From contig JANMKN010000053.1 of NCBI GenBank assembly GCA_031372065.1, positions 1 through 16,695 on the forward strand: DNA of 16,695 nt. The letters are read 5' to 3'. Origin of the DNA: Abditibacteriaceae bacterium. GTDB taxonomy: Bacteria; Armatimonadota; Abditibacteriia; Abditibacteriales; Abditibacteriaceae. Position 1 is the stretch's first letter; the number at the start of each line of letters is the position of its first letter. Positions 13-16,691 of this stretch are shown here, one piece after another. A model generated the notes under the pieces. It did no database searches. It was not told where the DNA came from and saw nothing but the letters and a program-made list of their open reading frames with translations. The position numbers and the translations under genes were made by a program.

Positions 13-1962
13 ATGCCCAAAGCGAAAACCACGACCAAAACCACCAAAACTGCGACGAAATCGAAACCTACAAAAGCCACGACGGCCACCAAAAAGGCTA
101 CGGCTAAAAACACGGCTGTTGAGGCGCCAGAAACCACAACACCCATTGACACTGCGCCGCAAGACAGCGCGCTCGAAACCGCAAACGCTGCCGAAACGCC
201 TGCGGAAGCAGACAACAGTGCGGCTTCTGTTGAAGCAGACAACGCCGAGGCTCTCAGCGCCGAAAGCGCCGAGGCCAGTGCTGTTGAAGAGAGTGCTGCC
301 GAAGGAGAGGCTGCTCCGGCCAAGTTGTCATGGGATTTAGTGGCCTCACGGATGTCCGCCGATTTTATCGGGCGCTGTTGGGATTTTATGGTGCGCACAG
401 CGCCGACGCGTGAAGTGTGGGCCTTGCTCGGCAAACCAGAACACGCGCCCGTCAAAATGCGCATCACCAAAGGCTTCCAACGCACGGCCAATTCTCTGCG
501 CCTGCCGGTGGTGCGCCATCGTTTACAAGATGAACTGGCGCTAAATGCCGAACTGACGGCGAAGATTTTATTAATCTGGGCCACCACCACTCCCAAGCCC
601 ACATCGCTGACAGCCGTTGAGGATTTTGAGGCCGACGATAATTTGTTCGATCAAATTCCTGATTTGTGCCACCGCTTCGGACATGAGGCGACAATGTTGT
701 CGCTGCTGGCCCTGCGCCGGTATCAAGTTATTACTTTGTGGAGCGAAAAAGTCGCCAGCAGCGAGTGGAGTTTGGAAACGCCAGCAACCGAAGACGCTGT
801 AGGAGAAGAAGCGCCCAACGAGCAGCCCAACAACGAAAAGCAACTGGCCGCCGCCAACGAAGAAATTCGCAAATTGCAGCAAAACCTTGAAAAATCCGAG
901 CAGAAATTGCGTCAAGCACAAGCCTCTTTGATATCGGCCAAAGACAACTTTGCCAGAGAAACTCACGAGTTGCAGGCGCGCTTAAAACAAGAAGAAAATC
1001 GCTTCGTGCGCGAACACGAAAAACTCGAAGACGACGAGCGCTTATTAGACCGCACGACACGCAAACTCAAAAGTGCCGAAAAGCAAGTCGAAGAACTGGA
1101 AGCCGAAAATAAGCGCCAGAAAAAACAAGTGCGCCAACAACAAGAAGTCAACGAGGAATTGCAAAAAGAAATTGCCGCCTTAAAAACCCAAATCGAAGAA
1201 CTCGAAGACGAATTAGAAAACGGCCTACCCGAACCGGAAGCAGAGGAGCCTCAACCCGCCGTCGAAGCCCGCGCGACTGCCCTCGCTTCGTATTTGCGTG
1301 CCCCGGCAGGGCCGTTGCCGGCAGTGATGGTGCCCGCCTCGCGCACCATCAGTTCATCGCCGTTAGATCAGGTTTTTCAATGGAACGCCGATGGCCGCGC
1401 CATTCGCGTCACCACGCGCGAAATCAAACGTGGCATTGATGCCAACAATGAAGGCTGGGTTTTCGCGCTGATTCAAGCGCTGGACGCCCTGCGCCATGCC
1501 TCGCCTGAAGGTTATCGCCTGCTGCTGGAGCGCGTTAAAGAATTGGATTCATATTATTTTCGTGTTTTGACGCTGCGCACCACACGCGTTTTGGTGGATG
1601 CCTCCAACGTCGCTCGTTACGAACGAAATCGCATGGGCAAAGGCCAAGTGCGTTTCCTTATGGTCATGCGCGACGAACTGCGCCGTCGCAACTGCTTCCC
1701 GATTCGTTTCATCGCCGATGCGTCCCTGCCCTACAATGTGGATGTGCCGGACGATCTTACGGCTATGGTGCGACGCGGCGAATTGGAAATGACCGCTGCC
1801 GGACAGGAAGCCGACGAAGTTCTCGCCCGCGAAGCGCGCCGCACCGGCGCGTTTGTGGTCACTAACGACCGCTCTTTCCACACCAAAACTTCACCACATT
1901 TCGAGCCGCCGCGTTTGGCGTTTCACTTCTACGAACAGCATCTCGTAATGGATGATTTTTGA
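13..1962 (+). CDS. Coiled-coil protein with C-terminal NYN/PIN-like (Zc3h12a/Regnase-type) ribonuclease domain
   Basis: 649-aa ORF. Lys/Thr/Ala-rich N-terminus, acidic Ala/Glu linker and a long heptad coiled coil (about aa 275-405). The C-terminal motifs VLVDASNVA, FIADAS, EADE and VVTNDR match the acidic catalytic pattern of NYN/PIN nucleases. Confidence 0.8.
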   Translation: MPKAKTTTKTTKTATKSKPTKATTATKKATAKNTAVEAPETTTPIDTAPQDSALETANAAETPAEADNSAASVEADNAEALSAESAEASAVEESAAEGEAAPAKLSWDLVASRMSADFIGRCWDFMVRTAPTREVWALLGKPEHAPVKMRITKGFQRTANSLRLPVVRHRLQDELALNAELTAKILLIWATTTPKPTSLTAVEDFEADDNLFDQIPDLCHRFGHEATMLSLLALRRYQVITLWSEKVASSEWSLETPATEDAVGEEAPNEQPNNEKQLAAANEEIRKLQQNLEKSEQKLRQAQASLISAKDNFARETHELQARLKQEENRFVREHEKLEDDERLLDRTTRKLKSAEKQVEELEAENKRQKKQVRQQQEVNEELQKEIAALKTQIEELEDELENGLPEPEAEEPQPAVEARATALASYLRAPAGPLPAVMVPASRTISSSPLDQVFQWNADGRAIRVTTREIKRGIDANNEGWVFALIQALDALRHASPEGYRLLLERVKELDSYYFRVLTLRTTRVLVDASNVARYERNRMGKGQVRFLMVMRDELRRRNCFPIRFIADASLPYNVDVPDDLTAMVRRGELEMTAAGQEADEVLAREARRTGAFVVTNDRSFHTKTSPHFEPPRLAFHFYEQHLVMDDF

Positions 1963-5622: not shown

Positions 5623-5676
5623 GAAATAAGAAATTAACAATTGCGTAACCCCAATGTGACTCCCCGACAGTAGGAT
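5623..5676 (+). promoter_or_regulatory. Four 11-bp-phased direct-repeat boxes (OmpR/GlnR-like) plus a -10 element for the sigma factor gene
   Basis: GAAAT (5623), TTAAC (5634), GTAAC (5645) and GTGAC (5656), each separated by 6 nt, then TAGGAT at 5671-5676. Confidence 0.5.
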
Positions 5677-5725
5677 GAATGGCAGTTATCGTAGGAAGTT
5701 TTGCTCGCTTACCTCCCGAACTGTC

Positions 5726-6814
5726 ATGTCGAAAACCAGCTCTTCCACGGCTTCTTTGTCGCCTTTGGTCGCTTTCGAGAACGAAACGCCGGATGAATTG
5801 GTGGCGCGTTCTGTCAGTGGCGATGAAAAAGCGCTCGAAGCCCTTTATCATCGCTTTCGCCCGCTCTTGCGCGCGCGGATGCAACGATTGTGGGCGGCGC
5901 TGCGCGAAGAATTGACTTCTGTTGAATGGGCCGATGTCGAGGCGCAAGTGAATTACATTTTCTTTCACCGCGCGCAACGATTTGAAGTGCATCACGGCGT
6001 TTATTTCGCGCATTACATCGAACGTATGGTCTCGCTGGACTGCACGGCGTGGCTGCGCGAGCAAAGAAGGGCGGGCGCGGTGCCGTTTTCTCAATTGGGC
6101 GCCGAATCGGGCGATCCCGAAACGTGGCTCGGTGGCGACAACAGCCTCACGCACGAAGTAGACAGCGTGCTTAGTTTGCGCAGCGCGCTGGATGATTTAT
6201 CGCCTGCCCAACATGAAGCGGTCTGGCAAGTTTGCATCTTGGGACTTACAGAAGAAGAAGCCGCGCGCCGCTTGCAAATATCGCGTTCTGCTTTGCGCAA
6301 TCGCCTCCAAGCGGGCGTCGCCAATCTTCGCAAGTGCTTCGACAATAGTTCCATCACCGCTGAAACCCGCACCGGACGCCAATCGGCGAAATTGGCTGTG
6401 CTGGATCACTGGGAAGAAAGGCTACTCATGGCCAAAGACGAAAAACGTCCCGATCTCATCGGTGTAGGCGCCGGACGTCCTGTTTTATTGCAAGGAATTT
6501 TTCAATTCGAGGCCACTGGTCTCGAATTGCCGCAACTTCTTTCACCCAAACTGCGCTATGTCGTGCCCGCCGGTCATGTCGCTGGAATTCGCTTTGTGCG
6601 TGTCGGCGTGGTCTGCGACCAAATGGTTTGCCTGTCCACGGTGGTTAATGGCCTGACGCATCGCCTGATTCCCATTGCCGCCAATTCGTCGGCGCATATT
6701 CCCTTTGCCATTGTCGAGCCGATTGTAGCCGGTTCAGAAATTGAAATTCATATCGCCAGCAATGGAGCGGGAACGGCAATTATTGATGTCGGCTGCCTGC
6801 AAATGCCAGCCTAA
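5726..6814 (+). CDS. Sigma-70 family (ECF-like) RNA polymerase sigma factor with fused C-terminal ~128-aa beta-rich domain
   Basis: Region-2-like ELVARSVSGDEKALEALYHRFRPLL...FAHYIERMV and region-4 HTH LRSALDDLSPAQHEAV...GLTEEEAARRLQISRSALRNRL. Extra domain from about 6428. ATG 5726 is preferred because the track start 5675 lies inside the putative -10. Confidence 0.8.
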   Translation: MSKTSSSTASLSPLVAFENETPDELVARSVSGDEKALEALYHRFRPLLRARMQRLWAALREELTSVEWADVEAQVNYIFFHRAQRFEVHHGVYFAHYIERMVSLDCTAWLREQRRAGAVPFSQLGAESGDPETWLGGDNSLTHEVDSVLSLRSALDDLSPAQHEAVWQVCILGLTEEEAARRLQISRSALRNRLQAGVANLRKCFDNSSITAETRTGRQSAKLAVLDHWEERLLMAKDEKRPDLIGVGAGRPVLLQGIFQFEATGLELPQLLSPKLRYVVPAGHVAGIRFVRVGVVCDQMVCLSTVVNGLTHRLIPIAANSSAHIPFAIVEPIVAGSEIEIHIASNGAGTAIIDVGCLQMPA

Positions 6815-6958
6815 AAGCCTATCCGAATAGGGAATGGCGTCTGCCTGGAGTCCGTCCAAAGGGCACCCGCCGTCCCGCCCGCTCCGGCTTTGAAAAAAGC
6901 GGGCGAGACGCCGGGTGCCCTTTGGGCGGACTCCATTTTCCTATTTGGATAGGTTCTA
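6813..6958. mobile_element. Palindromic MITE/REP-like element 1
   Basis: Terminal IR CCTATCCGAATAGG (6818-6831) / CCTATTTGGATAGG (6940-6953). Inner IR TGGAGTCCGTCCAAAGGGCACCCG (6846-6869) / CGGGTGCCCTTTGGGCGGACTCCA (6912-6935), then a CGCCCGCT/AGCGGGCG core. No coding capacity. Confidence 0.55.
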
Positions 6959-7016
6959 AGAATCAGTTTGAAGAGTCTTATTCGAGGCGGAAAAGACTTT
7001 TCAAACTGATTCTTAG
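6956..7016. repeat. 61-bp near-perfect inverted repeat (MITE-like element 2 or bidirectional terminator)
   Basis: CTAAGAATCAGTTTGAAGAGTCTT and AAGACTTTTCAAACTGATTCTTAG form 24-bp arms with one mismatch, lying between convergent genes. Confidence 0.7.
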
Positions 7017-7022
7017 GTGCGT

Positions 7023-7388
7023 TTACGCGGACGGTGTGGACTTTTTGGTGGGCGACTTGCGCTCGCTGGATTTCTTGCGGCCCACCGAGGCAGCTTGATC
7101 GGAATCGCGGCCATATTGCGCCACGACCTGATCGGAGGCGCCAATACGGATGTTGTGGAACTCCCATTCGGCGGCGGCGGCGGCATCGCGCGCCGCGTCG
7201 AAGGCGTTTTTGGCTTGCGTTTCCAATGCGCGCTTGTTGTCCATTACTGTGCGCTTGGCCGCAATTTTCACTTTGGTGAAGTCCGCGTTGCTCGGATTGT
7301 AGTCGTCCATTTCTTCGATGGCGTCTACCGTCTTCTCGTCTTCGGCCAGAATTTTAGGATTGAGGCGCTTGGTTTGATCTTTTGCCAT
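7023..7388 (-). CDS. Small helical hypothetical protein with basic C-terminal tail (121 aa)
   Basis: ATG with strong SD AGAAAGGA (7404-7397) and its own sigma70-like promoter. Alpha-helical composition. The C-terminal QYGRDSDQAASVGRKKSSERKSP resembles, from memory, a widespread uncharacterised family with a Q[FY]G.DS....GxKKxSERK motif. Confidence 0.85.
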   Translation of the reverse strand: MAKDQTKRLNPKILAEDEKTVDAIEEMDDYNPSNADFTKVKIAAKRTVMDNKRALETQAKNAFDAARDAAAAAEWEFHNIRIGASDQVVAQYGRDSDQAASVGRKKSSERKSPTKKSTPSA

Positions 7389-7435
7389 GATTTCGTTCCT
7401 TTCTATGGAGCCAGAAAGTGGCTCCCGCTGCTGAA

Positions 7436-7465
7436 ATTATCCTAATATGCGGCCTGCGTTGTCAA
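7436..7465 (-). promoter_or_regulatory. Sigma70-type promoter of the 121-aa gene
   Basis: Minus strand TTGACA (7465-7460), 18 nt, GATAAT (7441-7436). A 5'-UTR hairpin GGAGCCA-N5-TGGCTCC lies at 7407-7425, just before the SD. Confidence 0.6.
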
Positions 7466-7475
7466 CAATCTGCTG

Positions 7476-7706
7476 AGATATTTCAAACATCTCAGCAGAT
7501 TTATTAAATATCTCGGCGGATTATTGGAATATCTCGACGGATTATCGAAATATCTCGCTGTATTATTGAAATATCTCGTTGGATTATCGAAATATCTCGG
7601 CGGATTATTGAAATATCTCGTGGGATTATTGGAATATCTTGACGGATGTTCAATAAATCTGTTGAGATATTCGAAACATCCGACGAGATGTTTTGAATAT
7701 CTCGCC
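7476..7706. repeat. Degenerate tandem array of 11 x 21-bp quasi-palindromic repeats
   Basis: Units start at 7476, 7497, 7518, 7539, 7560, 7581, 7602, 7623, 7644, 7665 and 7686 with no indels. Consensus RGATTATYGAAATATCTCGNN, core GAT-N9-ATC. Confidence 0.95.
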
Positions 7707-7811
7707 GTAGTTTGGCGGGCACACAGTAGGTCGCGCAACAAGAGACGAACATTTGCCTAACTCTACTTTCCGTTGCGCTTGAAAATCTGCTAAAAATGGG
7801 CTGTTTTATCC

Positions 7812-7841
7812 TTGACCTCTCAGCGTGAGGCGCTCTATAAT
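7812..7841 (+). promoter_or_regulatory. Sigma70-type promoter of the beta-helix gene
   Basis: TTGACC (7812-7817), 18 nt, TATAAT (7836-7841), about 100 nt upstream of the ATG. Confidence 0.65.
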
Positions 7842-7943
7842 GCACAATAGACTCGAATCACTATCTTAATGCTAAAGGTTCCAGAATCGGCTTGGATGGC
7901 GTCTTCAGCAATTTAGTCTTTTAGCCGTTAGGAGTTGTTTCTC

Positions 7944-10451
7944 ATGAAAGTTTTTCCTCAGTTTCTCCCGTCGTTCCTTCTGACCACGCTTTGCACCAGT
8001 TTCGTTCTGTTGAACACCGGTATAGTGCAAGCAGCGACGTTTACCGTCGTCAACACCAATGATAGTGGCGCGGGTAGCTTGCGGCAGGCCATTCTCGACG
8101 CGAATGCCAATGCAGGGGCGGATACGATTCGTTTCAACATCGCCGGCTCCGGTGTTCACAGCATCGCGCCTACTTCTGCCCTGCCAAATGTCACCAGTCC
8201 GGCGACGATTGATGGCTACAGTCAACCCGGCGCCACGGCCAACACGTTCATCGGAGAGAACAACGCGGTTATGCAAATTGAACTCGATGGCAGCAACGCT
8301 GGTGAAACAGCCACAGGACTAACCATCACGGCGGGCAATAGCCTCGTGCAAGGTCTGGTCATCAACCGCTTCAAATTGAATGGCATTTTGCTTTATGGGG
8401 GAGGCAGCAACCGCATCAGCGGCAACTTCATTGGCACCGATGTCGGTGGCACAGTAGATCAGGGCAACCGCAAAGTCGGCGTAAAAATCTCCAGTGGTGC
8501 GAGCAATCAGATCGGCGGTGGCACCCCAGCGGAACGCAACGTCATCTCTGGCAATAACACTCACGGGATAGAATTGGCGAACCCCGCCACTAATGGCACT
8601 TTGATTTTCGGCAATTATATAGGCACCGATAAGATTGGCAGGTTGAGCTTAGGCAATCGGTATTATGGCATCAGCCTAAGCAATGGCACCTCTAACAACA
8701 TCATTGGCAGCACACCAGCCACTTCAAGTAATTATGTGAGCGGCAACATAATTGGGGGCAACCTTGCCTATGGTATTCGCTTGATAGATGCAACCACCAC
8801 CGGCAACCAAATAATAGGGAATAGCTTTGGAGTAACCATCAGTAGCTTTTCTGACCTACCCAATGGTTTAGGAGATGCGTTTATTAGCGCGCCTAATAAT
8901 ATCATCGGTGGCCTCTCCAATGGAGCGGGTAATCTTATTGGTGGCACGGCGATGATTTCAGGCGCCACTGCGACTGGCAATCAAGTAGTGGGCAATCCGC
9001 TCATTACGGTGACGATTAATAATGCCCGAAATAACATCGTGGGCGGCACTACAGCCGGAGCAGGCAACACAGGCGCTGTGACAATTCAAGGCAGCAGCGC
9101 AACTGGCAACCAGGTGCTGGGCAATACCTTAAAGAGCGTGCGTATTAACAATGCTCGCAACAACACCATTGGCGGCGCGGCAAGTGGTGCCGCTAATACT
9201 ATCAACGGTGGGATGGGCACATCTAAAGGCGCGTTTGGCGTGACAATTACGGGCAGCGGGGCAAGCGGCAACCAGGTGCTGGGCAACTACATCGGCACCA
9301 ACTCTACCGGCACCGCTGCATCGGGAAGCGATTACGGCGTTTTTATTAACAATGCTCCTAACAACACTGTGGGCGGCACAGTGAGCGGAGCGCGCAACAT
9401 CATCTCCGGCAATGGCTGGGGCGTGATGATTACGGGCAGCGGCGCAACCGGCAATCAGGTGCTGGGCAATTATATCGGCACGAATGCGGCGGGCAACGCT
9501 AAAATTGCCAACTTTTATGGCGTCACCATTGACGGCGCGAACAACAACATTATTGGGGGCACCACGGCAGCGGCGCGCAACATCATTTCCGGCAATGGCA
9601 GCATCGGCATTCAACTCCTCCACGCAGCCACCGGCAATCAAGTGTTGGGCAACTACATTGGCCTCAACGCGGCAGGCACATCGCCCTTGAGCAACAGCGA
9701 TTCAGGCATCTCCCTTTATGAAGCCGATGGCAACACCATTGGCGGGACTACTGCCGGAGCGCGCAACGTGATTTCAGGCAATGGCCGAGGCATCGTCATC
9801 AGTCGCCACAGTGGCTCTGGTAATGTGGTGCTGGGCAATTACATCGGCACCGGCCCGGATGGGCTAACCGCTCGTGGCAACCAGAAAGAAGGCATTCGCT
9901 TTAGTATTGCTTCCAATAACCGCATTGGTGGCCCGAATGCGGGCGAAGGCAATGTGATCGCCTTCAATGGCGACGCCGGTGTGTCTTCCACCACGTCATC
10001 ATTCACTCTACCGCCCGGCACCGGCAATCAGATCGTGGGCAATGCGCTGTTCGCCAATGGCGGTTTGGGCATTGACTTGGCGTTCGATGGCGTCAGCGCC
10101 AACGATGCGGGCGATGGCGATGTGGGCGCTAATAATCTGCAAAACTTCCCTGTCTTGAACAGCGCAGTAGCCGCAGGCAGCACAACGGGACTTGATGGCA
10201 CGCTCAACAGCACGCCCAACCAAGACTATGCCCTTGACTTTTACGCCAGTCCCAGTGCCGACCCGTCAGGCTTCGGCGAGGGCCAAACCTATTTAGGGCG
10301 CATGATCGTGACGACCAACGGCAGCGGCGATGTGAGTTTCAGCTTCGATGCGCTGGGCGACCTGAGCGGTCAGGTTATCACGGCAACAGCCACCAACACC
10401 AGCACGAACGACACCAGCGAATTCAGCCAAGCCGTGGCCGTGACACCATAA
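7944..10451 (+). CDS. Secreted right-handed parallel beta-helix repeat protein (CSLREA-like N-terminus), possible adhesin or surface protein
   Basis: AGGAG SD (7930-7934) before ATG 7944. Signal peptide ending VQA-A; TVVNTNDSGAGSLRQAI motif; many GNQVLGNYIGT and NTIGGTTAGARNVISGN repeats; C-terminal DGDVGANNLQNFPVL...TATAT...TSEFS module. Confidence 0.85.
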   Translation: MKVFPQFLPSFLLTTLCTSFVLLNTGIVQAATFTVVNTNDSGAGSLRQAILDANANAGADTIRFNIAGSGVHSIAPTSALPNVTSPATIDGYSQPGATANTFIGENNAVMQIELDGSNAGETATGLTITAGNSLVQGLVINRFKLNGILLYGGGSNRISGNFIGTDVGGTVDQGNRKVGVKISSGASNQIGGGTPAERNVISGNNTHGIELANPATNGTLIFGNYIGTDKIGRLSLGNRYYGISLSNGTSNNIIGSTPATSSNYVSGNIIGGNLAYGIRLIDATTTGNQIIGNSFGVTISSFSDLPNGLGDAFISAPNNIIGGLSNGAGNLIGGTAMISGATATGNQVVGNPLITVTINNARNNIVGGTTAGAGNTGAVTIQGSSATGNQVLGNTLKSVRINNARNNTIGGAASGAANTINGGMGTSKGAFGVTITGSGASGNQVLGNYIGTNSTGTAASGSDYGVFINNAPNNTVGGTVSGARNIISGNGWGVMITGSGATGNQVLGNYIGTNAAGNAKIANFYGVTIDGANNNIIGGTTAAARNIISGNGSIGIQLLHAATGNQVLGNYIGLNAAGTSPLSNSDSGISLYEADGNTIGGTTAGARNVISGNGRGIVISRHSGSGNVVLGNYIGTGPDGLTARGNQKEGIRFSIASNNRIGGPNAGEGNVIAFNGDAGVSSTTSSFTLPPGTGNQIVGNALFANGGLGIDLAFDGVSANDAGDGDVGANNLQNFPVLNSAVAAGSTTGLDGTLNSTPNQDYALDFYASPSADPSGFGEGQTYLGRMIVTTNGSGDVSFSFDALGDLSGQVITATATNTSTNDTSEFSQAVAVTP

Positions 10452-10597: not shown

Positions 10598-13500
10598 TTA
10601 CGGCGTGGTGCGCGTGGTAATTTCGATGGTTTTGCCGTTCAAGGCGGCGCCACCGGCTTGGGCAGTCCAGCGCAAAATGTAGGCGGTGTTCGGCCACAAA
10701 TAGCCAATGCGCAAGGGTTGCCCTTCGCCGGAAGCCAAAAGAGTGGCAGGCACGAAGACAGCGTTTTGCGCGTTGCGCGGGCGGATTTCAAGCGTCATTT
10801 GGGCGGCGCCGGGTGGCACATCTTGCGGTTGCACCCAGATTTCACTCGTGCCCACAGCCATCACGCCCGGCGCAGGCAACTGCGTGAGATTTTCACCCGG
10901 CTTTACAACAATCTCCGGGCCGCTGACTGGCGCGCTGTCCGGCTCGCCGACGGCGACCCAACGCAAACGATAATCATGCTCCCGCTCCATGCCCCACAGT
11001 TCCACAGGCGCGCCTTCTGCGGCAGCTTGCGCATCGGCAAAGTCGCCCACAGGGTCATTGGAAGCCTTCACCTGCAAACGCAAATAACGCGCACCCGGCG
11101 GCAATTGCGGCGCAATTAAGCGGGCCATGACGCCGCCGCCTTGCGTCGAGAAACTTTCGATTTGCGGCGCTTCGGGCGTCTGCACCGGCAGCGTTTCGGC
11201 TTCGGTAGACAATGTGGACGAGGGGCCATAGATGCGCCCTTGCGGGCCATCGGCCACCCAACGCACACGATAATTGGCATTAGGTGCAAGTCCGCGCAGC
11301 GCCACGGCAAAGCCTTCGGAAGTTTCCACCAATTCTTCGAGTTGCGCGCTTTGAAAAGCGGTGTCCTCTTCTTCCCAACCGCGAATTTCCAGCGCGCCCA
11401 ACTTGTAGCCTTCGGGCAACGCCGGCACGGCAGCTAAGGCGCCTTTGGCTGTCGCACGCGTCAAAAGCGGCACTGGCACACCGTTATTAGTTTGGTTTTC
11501 CGGCGGAAATACCGAATCGGGAATTTCTAACGCTGGATTGCCCGCTGGCGGATTACCCACTGGCGGAATGTCTGGATAAACCGGCGGGTTTGTGCCATTT
11601 GCAGGAAAACCCGGTGCGGGAACCGTATTTGGCGTGCCCGGTTGTGGCAGCATAACGCGCGTTGCTGTGCCCGGCGTGCGACCTGCCGCGCCAATCGCCA
11701 CATACCGAAATTCATAAACCGTGCCCGGTTGGACTTCGCCAATGCGACCCGGTGCGCCACCAGCGAGGCCAACGATTAAGTCCTGCCACTCTCCCCCAGT
11801 GTTCGTGCCCGTATCCGTTGCAACGCGGCCTTGCAAAGTCAGCGACAGCGCGCGTTCCGGCAAGGGAGGAGCGGTCAGCAAAATGCCTTGGGCGTTCGCT
11901 TCGGCGACAATCGGCTCGGCGGGCGCCTCCGGCGCGTAAGCGGCGGGCTGCACAGGCAACGGCGTGCCGGGCGGCACCGTCGGATAATTCGGCGTGTAAA
12001 CCGGCGGCTGATAAGCGTTCGGATCGTTCGGAAACACCGGCGGATAATTGTTCGGATAGGGATACGAATTTGGATACGGATAATTGTTCGGATACGGGTA
12101 AGTATTCGGATAGGGATAACCCGGATTCGGATAAGTCGGGGGGTAGTTCGGTGGATAATTGCCGCCCCAACCGTCGGTTGTCACAGTTGCCACGCGTCCG
12201 ATGATGGAACCACCGCGCCCAAACGCCACAGCGCGAAACGCATAAGCCGTGCCGGGACGCAAACCGGTCACCGGAACATAGGCGCCGCCATCCAAACCGC
12301 GCGCGATGTCACGATAGGCCCAGTCGTCCTGCCATTCGGTTTTTTGTTGCAACGTCAGAGAAGTAGCTCCTTGGGGCAGCCACGGAACGCGCACATTGAC
12401 ACTGGTTTGCGTCACGCCCGAAAACGAAGGACGCGATGGCGATTCGGGAGCGCCTTGCTGGGTTGTCACGTTAGCAGAGGCGCCTTCGGTTTGCCCGCCG
12501 GGGCCTACCGCTAAATAGCGAAATGTGTATTCTGTGCCGTCATCCAAGCCGGTCACATTGGTGCTTTCACGGCCCGCCACGCCATTGGCGACGGTGCGAA
12601 AATAACGGTCATTGAAATCGCTCCGCTTGCGCTGCAAAATCAGCGACGTAGTCCGCGCCGGGAGCGCCGGGGCCGCCACACCAACACTATAACGTGTCAC
12701 ATTGAAAAAGCGAGGCCGTCCCGGCGCTTGTGGCGCGGTTTCGGGATGTGGATTAGGATTCGGATTTGGGTTCGGGTTTGGGTTGGGATTTGGGTTCGGG
12801 CGCGGATCAGGCCCAAGTGGGCGCGTGCGCACCGTCAATTGAGTGCTGGGCGTCGCGCCATTTGGCCCGACAGCTATCCAACGAAACGCATAGTTGGTGT
12901 TCGCCTGTAATTTATCAATCGTGGTCGTTTCGCCGCCTTTCAAATTGGTGGCGACATTGATATAAAAGCCGAAACCTGCTGCCCGTGCCCGTTGTAAGAT
13001 CAGCGAAGTCGCACCGGCGGGCAAGGGCGGCGCCGTGATGCTGATGCTGTCATCCGAAACGTGGCTCGCCGCCGGTGCAGCGGGCACTTCAGGCGGGCGA
13101 TTAGTCGTCGGTGGCGTCGTGGGGCGCGCTGGCGTCGGGTCAATTTCAGGACGCGGCAGTGGATTGGGCTTTGGCGTAGGCTTTTCTTCCGGCTTTGGAT
13201 TGCGGCTTGGCCCTGTCCACGGTTTTGGCTTTTCTTCCGGTTTTGGTTCTGGCCTCGGTTCCGGCTTTGGCTCCGGTTTGGGTTCGGGCTTCTCCTCCGG
13301 TTTGGGTTCGGGCTTCTCCTCTGGCTTCGGTTCCGGTTTCGGGTCACGCTTTGGGCCAGTCCAAGGATCGCGCTTGGGCTTTTCTTCTGGCTTCGGTGCG
13401 GGTTGAGGTTCGGGCGGCGGCGCAGGTTTTGGTTCTGGCTTAGGCTCCGGTTTGGGTTCGCGTTTTGGGCCTGTCCACGGCTCACGTTTTGGTTTTCCTT

Positions 13501-13834
13501 CCGGTTTTTCTTCGGGTTTGGGTTCCGGTCTCGGCTCGCGTTTCGGCCCTGTCCACGGCTCGCGCTTGGGAGTTTCCTTGGGTTCGTCCTTCGGCTCTTC
13601 TTTGGGTTTCTCTTTCGGCTCGTCTTTTTTGGTGTCTTTTTCTGGTTCGGGCTGGGGACGAGGCGAGCGCGGCAAGGGAAATCCGCGTTGTGCCGAGGCC
13701 GGAGATGATGACAGCAAAACTGGCGCGGCAAGAAGTGACCATGCTGCCAATAAAAACAAAGCGCGACGTAAAGGAAAACTCAAAAAACGTGACGGCTGAT
13801 TGAATTGTTGGTTGACATCAGGCGGTGCAATCAT
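10598..13834 (-). CDS. Secreted Pro-rich protein with seven fibronectin type III-like modules
   Basis: GGAG SD; signal peptide ending ASA-Q; long PEPK/PEEK region. Seven ~90-aa modules ending in GL.PGT.Y.FR..A.G-type FN3 signatures, with (PN)n and YPN-repeat linkers. Confidence 0.85.
13160..13650 (-). repeat. Coding low-complexity repeats (PEPK/PEEK with four PWTGP motifs)
   Basis: PWTGP encoded near 13547-13558, 13469-13480, 13355-13366 and 13211-13222, with synonymous variation between copies. Confidence 0.85.
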
Positions 13835-16525: not shown

Positions 16526-16573
16526 CCGAAGTCGAAATCAATTACCAAAAGAGACGCTTTGCCTATAGGAGGT

Positions 16574-16691
16574 GGCTTTCGAGCCGCGTAAGCTGGCTTT
16601 CGAGCCGCGTAAGCTGGCTTTCGAGCCGCGTAAGCTGGCTTTCGAGCCGCGTAAGCAGGCTTTCGAGCCGCGAAAGAAGGCTTTCGAGCCG
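16574..16691. repeat. Tandem array of 21-bp units GGCTTTCGAGCCGCGTAAGCT (5 full units plus a sixth core), possibly truncated by the window end
   Basis: Units start at 16574, 16595, 16616, 16637, 16658 and 16679. The first three are identical, and each contains the mini-palindrome GGCT-TTCG-AGCC. Confidence 0.95.

Follow-up and report, generated by a model that had tools for sequence, protein, structure and literature searches.

A conserved and apparently undescribed pairing of a 21-bp-period repeat array with the gene of a small helical protein

What does a run of short, evenly spaced repeats do in front of a gene whose product resembles no named protein? The question is raised by one locus in the window, by which we mean the whole 16,695-nt stretch of DNA analysed here, where a 21-bp array abuts the promoter of a 121-aa open reading frame (Table 1). 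The initial annotation had proposed a candidate protein-array unit, and most of its description of the locus holds. Eleven units stand beside the -35 box with 0 indels between them. TRF recovers the array too, and its match at a lag of 21 is 0.85, a value that 1000 shuffles never bring above 0.44. Six columns are invariant in 11/11 units (A3, T4, A12 and A14-T15-C16), which agrees with the AT at 3-4 and the ATC at 14-16 first noticed; G2 is kept in 10/11 units, and positions 20-21 vary freely, as had been said of the last nucleotides. The spacing comes close to a whole number of helical turns. The array is also AT-richer than its flanks, with a GC content of 0.35 compared with 0.55 and 0.45 on the two sides and 0.53 in the genome. 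It holds units of both orientations: unit 9 matches the reverse complement of unit 2 at 13/15 positions, as opposed to 9/15 for unit 2 itself. The promoter-like site before the gene and the frame itself are where they had been placed (minus strand, 7465-7436 and 7388-7023), and a decayed twelfth unit does hold the -35 box. Centred on the promoter-proximal unit is a perfect 13-bp inverted repeat, which begins 2 bp from the -35 box and may represent an operator-like element.

Table 1. Features of the array-gene locus in window coordinates
Feature	Position	Strand	Basis or remark
121-aa gene, C-terminus GRKKSSERKSPTKKSTPSA	7023..7388	-	ORF
Purine-rich ribosome-binding site	7395..7404	-	sequence; similar AGGA tracts precede most homologues
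7-bp hairpin in predicted 5' UTR	7407..7425	-	sequence; UTR folding
Sigma70-type promoter-like site TTGACA-N18-GATAAT, between array and gene	7436..7465	-	11/12 consensus matches
Decayed twelfth unit containing the -35 box	7455..7475	no strand	same register in sister loci C298 and C211
Perfect 13-bp inverted repeat, 9-bp spacer, promoter-proximal array end (7467-7479 / 7489-7501)	7467..7501	no strand	sequence
21-bp array of eleven contiguous dyad-like units, GAT-N9-ATC-N6	7476..7706	no strand	read as non-coding

The array region is a divergent intergenic space, in which a second promoter-like site (7812-7841) faces the next gene, and no minus-strand terminator-like site was found in 6700-8000. 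The leader hairpin is kept in the C298 sister copy and is not general among homologues. Between the stop codon of the gene and a convergent gene lie two distinct palindromic dispersed repeats, 6816-6955 and 6951-7022. The MITE-like elements of the initial annotation are thus present, but both recur elsewhere in the genome, 6951-7022 on more than 15 contigs, and are by that recurrence dispersed repeats separate from the unit. The 6951-7022 palindrome occupies the place of a terminator-like hairpin in the C298 and C168 copies. The plus-strand gene at 5675-6814, which most genomes of the host family retain, encodes an ECF-sigma-like protein with an extra C-terminal stretch of ~130 aa that has no Pfam match; the gene that follows it in several relatives resembles, by our reading of the open reading frames, genes of nitrogen or sulfur assimilation. 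None of 16 orthologues of this adjacent gene has an array nearby. No clean empty site or allele was found around them, because synteny breaks down there. Elsewhere in the window are a 1078-aa Pro/Glu/Lys-repeat protein with FN3 domains (10598-13834, minus strand), a 649-aa coiled-coil protein whose C-terminal part weakly matches an NYN-like nuclease (13-1962, plus strand) and a second 21-bp array (16570-16691, 96% matches) that reaches the contig end and clusters in sequence with the array before a 229-aa helical-family gene on C378, plus four others.

Is this pairing of array and gene peculiar to one locus? Calling an array wherever the lag-21 match is at least 0.55 within 600 bp upstream, we find one in 61/80 homologous loci, as opposed to 1/79 downstream; in the distant flanks arrays occur at 0/66 loci far upstream and 1/73 far downstream. 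Of the lags from 10 to 44, none but 21 and 42 scores at two or more loci. A further 57 non-redundant loci gave 42 arrays upstream and 4 downstream, and after clustering the array is still present in 34/45 clusters at 68% identity and 19/23 at 60%. The recurrence of periodic arrays beside homologues that the initial annotation had named as its check is found in both sets. A scan for sigma70-like motifs (at least 10 bits, sense strand, approximate weights, locus L013 excluded for an overlapping 33-bp repeat) places one between array and ATG at 21/63 loci, compared with 1/63, 2/60, 1/60 and 2/63 in four controls, and the -35 box takes a non-random phase with respect to the dyad axis (Rayleigh p ~0.005, n=33, kin retained). 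The order array, promoter, gene is conserved. The dyad, which the initial annotation had read from the window, is common, being present in 47/64 homologous arrays, but not universal, given that only 18/37 arrays in this genome show it. In homologous arrays we count 49 gap events and 3551 substitutions, and a simulation without indels yields 8 false gaps; as detection by lag match disfavours indels, the ratio sets a minimum for them. The neighbours that recur at the 80 loci include no transposase or recombinase, and no other widely recurring neighbour was found within 3 kb. A small gene that we label HTH-like from our own reading of its sequence lies near 17/80 loci; the examples (L010, L012, L013, L016, L024, L029 and L034) are Acidobacteriota records, in which it is mostly convergent and downstream.

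The 121-aa protein is helical and ends in a Lys/Arg-rich tail, as first described. Its AlphaFold model (pLDDT 88, pTM 0.59) places short helices at residues 11-26 and 97-101 around a long one of 54 residues at 39-92. Mean net charge in the family is +2.0 at residues 1-10, +6.5 at 103-121 and negative between, and the protein is predicted to carry a basic N-terminal arm and a basic C-terminal tail on an acidic rod. Synonymous codon changes outnumber non-synonymous ones in 8/8 close homologue pairs. Searches of Pfam, NCBIfam, PADLOC and PDB sequences returned no match, PHROGs only scattered weak ones and the ESM Atlas only unnamed clusters. Likewise, Foldseek and VIA found for the monomer model generic long helices and no known DNA-binding fold, the best match having a Z of 5.5 and an rmsd of 11.9 over 99 aligned residues; neither a catalytic motif nor a recombinase-like fold was found in the protein. 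A longer fused form was not found among 7997 candidates, which is weak evidence. The protein has 37 close relatives, and its relatives form 777 clusters at 50% identity. The best 80 of 194 genomic loci span what we take, from record names, to be Pseudomonadota, Chloroflexota, Acidobacteriota, Verrucomicrobiota, Cyanobacteria and Bacteroidota. Occurrence is patchy, with the family in 3/151 genomes of the host's phylum and, seed genomes included, in 3/301, 11/201, 1/301, 23/301 and 5/301 genomes of five other groups. It is found in 1/72,556 plasmid records, a 1-Mb Nostoc replicon, and in 0/50,697 phage records, and no IMG/VR locus was found. This patchy distribution and the array density in relatives (below) support the accessory character suggested for the unit.

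If the layout is conserved, are the letters of the array conserved with it? Proteins more than 70% identical have arrays with a mean similarity of 0.50-0.54; for those under 60% the mean falls to 0.37-0.38, close to the 0.36 of shuffled arrays. The co-variation of array and protein that had been anticipated is thus seen between close relatives (above about 70% identity) but vanishes below 60%. Array sequence is completely replaced between homologues that are 50-60% identical, and only the period persists. Mantel tests of protein segments against array sequence were null, as were window scans for a column-to-array code. Residue 9 as a predictor of array sequence reached a z of 3.5 against a null of 3.4 and failed in an independent set (p 0.44-0.56), and a residue-to-base code at positions 9-10, suggestive by eye, failed validation. 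A shared 10.5-bp A/T periodicity, by which a conserved protein surface could read the arrays, was not found, being dominant in 3/64. Altogether, no protein-DNA sequence code was found beyond close kin.

The array period follows the protein family, with 21 bp for the one-unit form and 41-43 bp for the form with two units plus FN3. The FN3-bearing family of 306-313 aa has 41-43-bp arrays at 52/63 metagenome loci (32 at 41, 19 at 42 and 1 at 43); in the metagenome set of 306-312 aa, a 21-bp sub-period occurs in two loci and a downstream array in 1/65. In this genome the 306-313-aa family has only 41/42-bp arrays, at 8/8 full-length copies with enough upstream DNA and at one truncated copy. The model of a 312-aa member (pLDDT 97) comprises two helical units, H10-28/H41-94/H100-105 and H118-133/H149-201/H208-211, followed by FN3, and both units have helix lengths as in the 121-aa protein. 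Profile comparison of the two families with hhalign lends weak support (probability 48%, E 1.8e-4), and the fold matches listed for the 312-aa model concern the FN3 domain only, which barely tests the helical part. Against other array-linked families the 121-aa family gives probabilities of 26-75% (four groups) and below 4% (seven), so that its homology to them is, from such comparisons, only suggestive. The genes behind arrays in this genome belong to several helical families, some with FN3, and 50/59 family genes with enough upstream DNA have an array upstream, compared with 16/386 control ORFs; as these families were first found via their array neighbours the former count leans high, and the homologue and metagenome tests are unaffected. 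Several other families of two-unit size have 21-bp arrays, so that a proportion of one unit to 21 bp does not hold generally. Exceptions that bear on what determines the period are a 198-aa gene with a 42-bp array (C190:28665-29261) and a 327-aa gene with a 20-bp array (C137:14525-15508), a close paralogue of the latter having both 20 and 21; before a further gene (C122:29812-30528) the period is 22 bp. Among examples inspected, several other array-linked families have acidic or neutral tails.

Across the genome we find 244 distinct lag-21 arrays, or 296 non-coding arrays (~48 per Mb) when lags 20, 41 and 42 are added, together with ~60 array-linked family genes; the initial annotation had overlooked that this period class numbers some 250-300 arrays. 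A separate class comprises 7-bp tandem arrays, near-perfect and with 13-19 copies (C320:6171-6304, C351:63313-63430, C357:6701-6811 and C405:13378-13466). Samples of four relatives with no match or one match to the families tested (two of the three families in G002) hold 0 arrays in 0.4 Mb (G002), 1 in 0.28 Mb (G003), 0 in 0.2 Mb (G011) and 1 in 0.2 Mb (G012). G039, with 4 family matches, has 2 arrays in 0.16 Mb, and G052, with 3, has 0 in 0.2 Mb, so that in small samples the link between gene and array density is not tight. Genes and arrays have expanded jointly in this genome. The 244 arrays fall into 110 sequence clusters, the largest of 13 members; that of the window has 3. Only 37/244 are tied to a detected gene and 207/244 lack a detected partner, the solo arrays being as regular as the linked ones. 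A gene remnant accompanies 3 of 190 solo arrays and an outward promoter motif 16, and 43 are close to contig ends; solo arrays occupy convergent gaps (30) more often than divergent ones (16). Given that solo arrays are equally regular and more often convergent, a host regulon is unlikely. Sequence sisters in the genome were found for 29/37 linked arrays, and these are mostly solo; flanks are shared in 19/365 pairs of same-cluster arrays, and 13 paralogue pairs reveal no fixed common end points, with upstream genes shared by some. One sister cassette (C298:15677-16174) retains array, promoter and an internally deleted gene, and its central units are inverted relative to the window cassette (C50). 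A second (C211:16486-16700) keeps array, promoter and UTR, the gene being absent right after the ribosome-binding site. A distant paralogue on C168 has a different array.

What could the array be for? We favour, at a probability of roughly 0.45, that it would be a helically phased array on which the cassette's own product loads and which serves that product as an operator. Since the upstream arrays of relatives keep the spacing and change the letters, the block is likely, as a prediction, a docking site spaced by helical turns for the gene's own protein. The accessory cassette would consist of the 21-bp-period array, the promoter-like site and the small gene. Oligomers of the rod-shaped protein would load on the phased array, one oligomer spanning two helical turns and contacting DNA through the basic arm and tail carried on the acidic rod. 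The loaded protein would cover the adjacent -35 box and so may limit its own expression, and the cassette would have been passed on horizontally and duplicated imprecisely, with gene-less arrays as the remains. A loading array accounts for the fixed side, the abutting -35 box, the few indels, the dyads and a period that goes with the protein family. Left unexplained are a free sequence next to a fairly conserved protein and the regularity of gene-less arrays. Against it also count the lack of a match to a known DNA-binding fold, of a shared A/T periodicity and of a sequence code beyond close kin, the quarter to half of arrays that lack a clear dyad, the 21-bp arrays of other families of two-unit size, the acidic or neutral tails of several other families, and the partnerless majority.

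The array may instead be a product and not a platform: DNA-bound protein would act as a ruler that promotes duplication, slippage or inversion at offsets of 21 or 41-42 bp, so that whatever sequence is at hand could turn into an array, the arrays then persisting or dispersing by themselves. Free sequence under a family-specific period and regular arrays without genes would both follow, and freshly homogenised arrays (lag match 0.9-0.99), the flipped central units between the C50 and C298 cassettes, the density of arrays here next to their sparseness in four relatives with few or no such genes, the seldom shared flanks and the convergent bias of solo arrays all fit. We nevertheless consider it unlikely, as the protein shows no catalytic motif or recombinase-like fold, a pure by-product leaves the constant promoter-side position unexplained, and the mostly solo sequence sisters of linked arrays suggest copying rather than new origin. 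That the array is instead read by some other factor, such as a nucleoid protein, an RNA polymerase subunit or a trans regulator, or that DNA shape alone tunes the promoter, the gene product having some unrelated role, would agree with the failure to find a protein-array code, with a layout common to very different protein architectures, some with FN3, and with the small HTH-type gene near some loci. Such a reader would have to account for the switch from 21 to 41-42 bp with the protein family inside one genome and for hundreds of unrelated array sequences, neither of which it explains; no other neighbour recurs widely and the ECF-sigma-like orthologues stand without arrays, which makes this explanation quite unlikely.

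The remaining two alternatives take the array as transcribed. As a structured repeat RNA partnering the protein, in the manner of type III toxin-antitoxin, it would fold strongly (z -9 as RNA), but any dyad array folds well. On the gene strand G-T pairs exceed A-C pairs in 43/62 homologous loci, a bias that is absent from the linked arrays of this genome (614 vs 633) and reversed in the window (6 vs 19). The promoter-like motif stands between array and gene and not before the array (2/60), no Rfam family reaches its gathering score, and the strict helical-turn period would fit double-stranded DNA better. Thus the repeat RNA that the initial annotation had offered as its other option finds no consistent support, its strand-specific wobble pairing being inconsistent, and we regard it as distinctly improbable. 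A heptad-repeat coiled-coil peptide, at 7 codons per unit, is suggested by 21 = 3 x 7, by frames that stay open across the window array on both strands and by an overlapping ORF with weak coiled-coil Pfam matches (E 0.05-0.07). Codon-periodic variability is seen in only 1/64 arrays, however, stop codons lie in frames that differ from locus to locus, and neither the 41 bp of 32/52 arrays in the 306-312-aa family nor the 20 bp of one array here is a multiple of three. The non-codon-periodic variability and these periods largely refute the peptide, which we hold to be very improbable, and the homologous arrays look non-coding.

Is the layout already known under another name? Type III toxin-antitoxin and CRISPR loci also place a repeat array directly upstream of a gene. 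Unlike CRISPR, as the initial annotation had concluded, the units here are contiguous and have no spacers; no CRISPR family is among the Rfam matches, and no cas genes are among the window's main ORFs or the most recurrent neighbours of the 80 loci. Unlike in type III toxin-antitoxin, the promoter-like site comes after the array and no terminator-like site stands between array and gene; Pfam, PADLOC and Rfam gave no toxin or RNA family match. An array-linked helical gene of this genome, C318, passes the cut-off of NCBIfam NF052641, 'PQLLE family protein', a family on which we found no paper; the 121-aa protein does not match it, and profile comparison did not establish homology between NF052641 and the 121-aa family. 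DUF6261 has no match in this genome. Repeats presumably also lie upstream of hagB/hagC in P. gingivalis, a link from which no support is drawn. The available part of PMC4596501 describes BrickBuilt, a minisatellite-MITE of Porphyromonas gingivalis, as a single family of 23-nt sequence that has a leader and a tail as well as terminal inverted repeats and target-site duplications. Like the present arrays it is, there, intergenic, tandem and spacer-less, with many copies per genome, a link to promoter activity, and expansion and contraction by whole units; in contrast, we find ~110 unrelated clusters, periods of 20-21 or 41-43 bp and a partner gene family, where the same part of PMC4596501 gives BrickBuilt no fixed partner gene, and the paralogue pairs here have no shared fixed ends.

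The nearest functional analogue is the omega protein of pSM19035, which, in the accessible part of PMC4627068, coats unspaced direct and inverted repeats at its own promoter, overlapping the -35 box, and represses; it reads one fixed 7-bp sequence, its fold being ribbon-helix-helix, and on plasmids its partner is a ParA ATPase (PMC4627068). As with omega and parS in that part of PMC4627068, repeats in both orientations lie here at the promoter of a small gene and overlap the -35 box, a likeness of layout only, to which binding would be added by inference. Unlike omega as described there (PMC4627068), the present unit is 21 bp long with no 7-bp sub-period (found in 2/64 arrays), the sequence is free, the protein is predicted to be a long helical rod, an ATPase is not among the recurrent neighbours, and practically none of the loci is on a plasmid. 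Omega on parS heptads would, by analogy, be the model for how the array unit works. From the features of a plasmid centromere we find a repeat array at a promoter, as layout only, and, one plasmid record aside, no plasmid or phage location; neither the window nor the set of genes that recur within 3 kb of the 80 loci includes a ParA, ParM or TubZ motor gene. The available part of PMC13390158 holds nothing relevant to the layout. In the literature searched, with thin coverage of subscription journals, no description of the array-promoter-gene layout was found. The conserved gene-plus-array system is real and apparently undescribed, and the window presents it with the smallest of its protein forms; it is new at the level of layout, and its mechanism is one that we infer.

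It is reading by a protein that holds the sequence constant in known operator, iteron and centromere arrays. A wider proposal, possible but doubtful, is that a superfamily of rod-shaped helical proteins, each with a private array, would set the period by protein geometry and leave the letters free, the protein recognising or writing repetition itself, and that these cassettes would be enzyme-less selfish elements seeding hundreds of arrays. The simplest form to test is the 121-aa one, as a single helical unit is predicted for it and no further domain. If the protein recognises or generates spacing, this would be a mode of protein-DNA recognition or of repeat genesis that we have not found described. 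If true, several large unnamed families of helical and helical-plus-FN3 proteins would also gain a function, and the class of intergenic repeats that is so dense in this genome would be explained.
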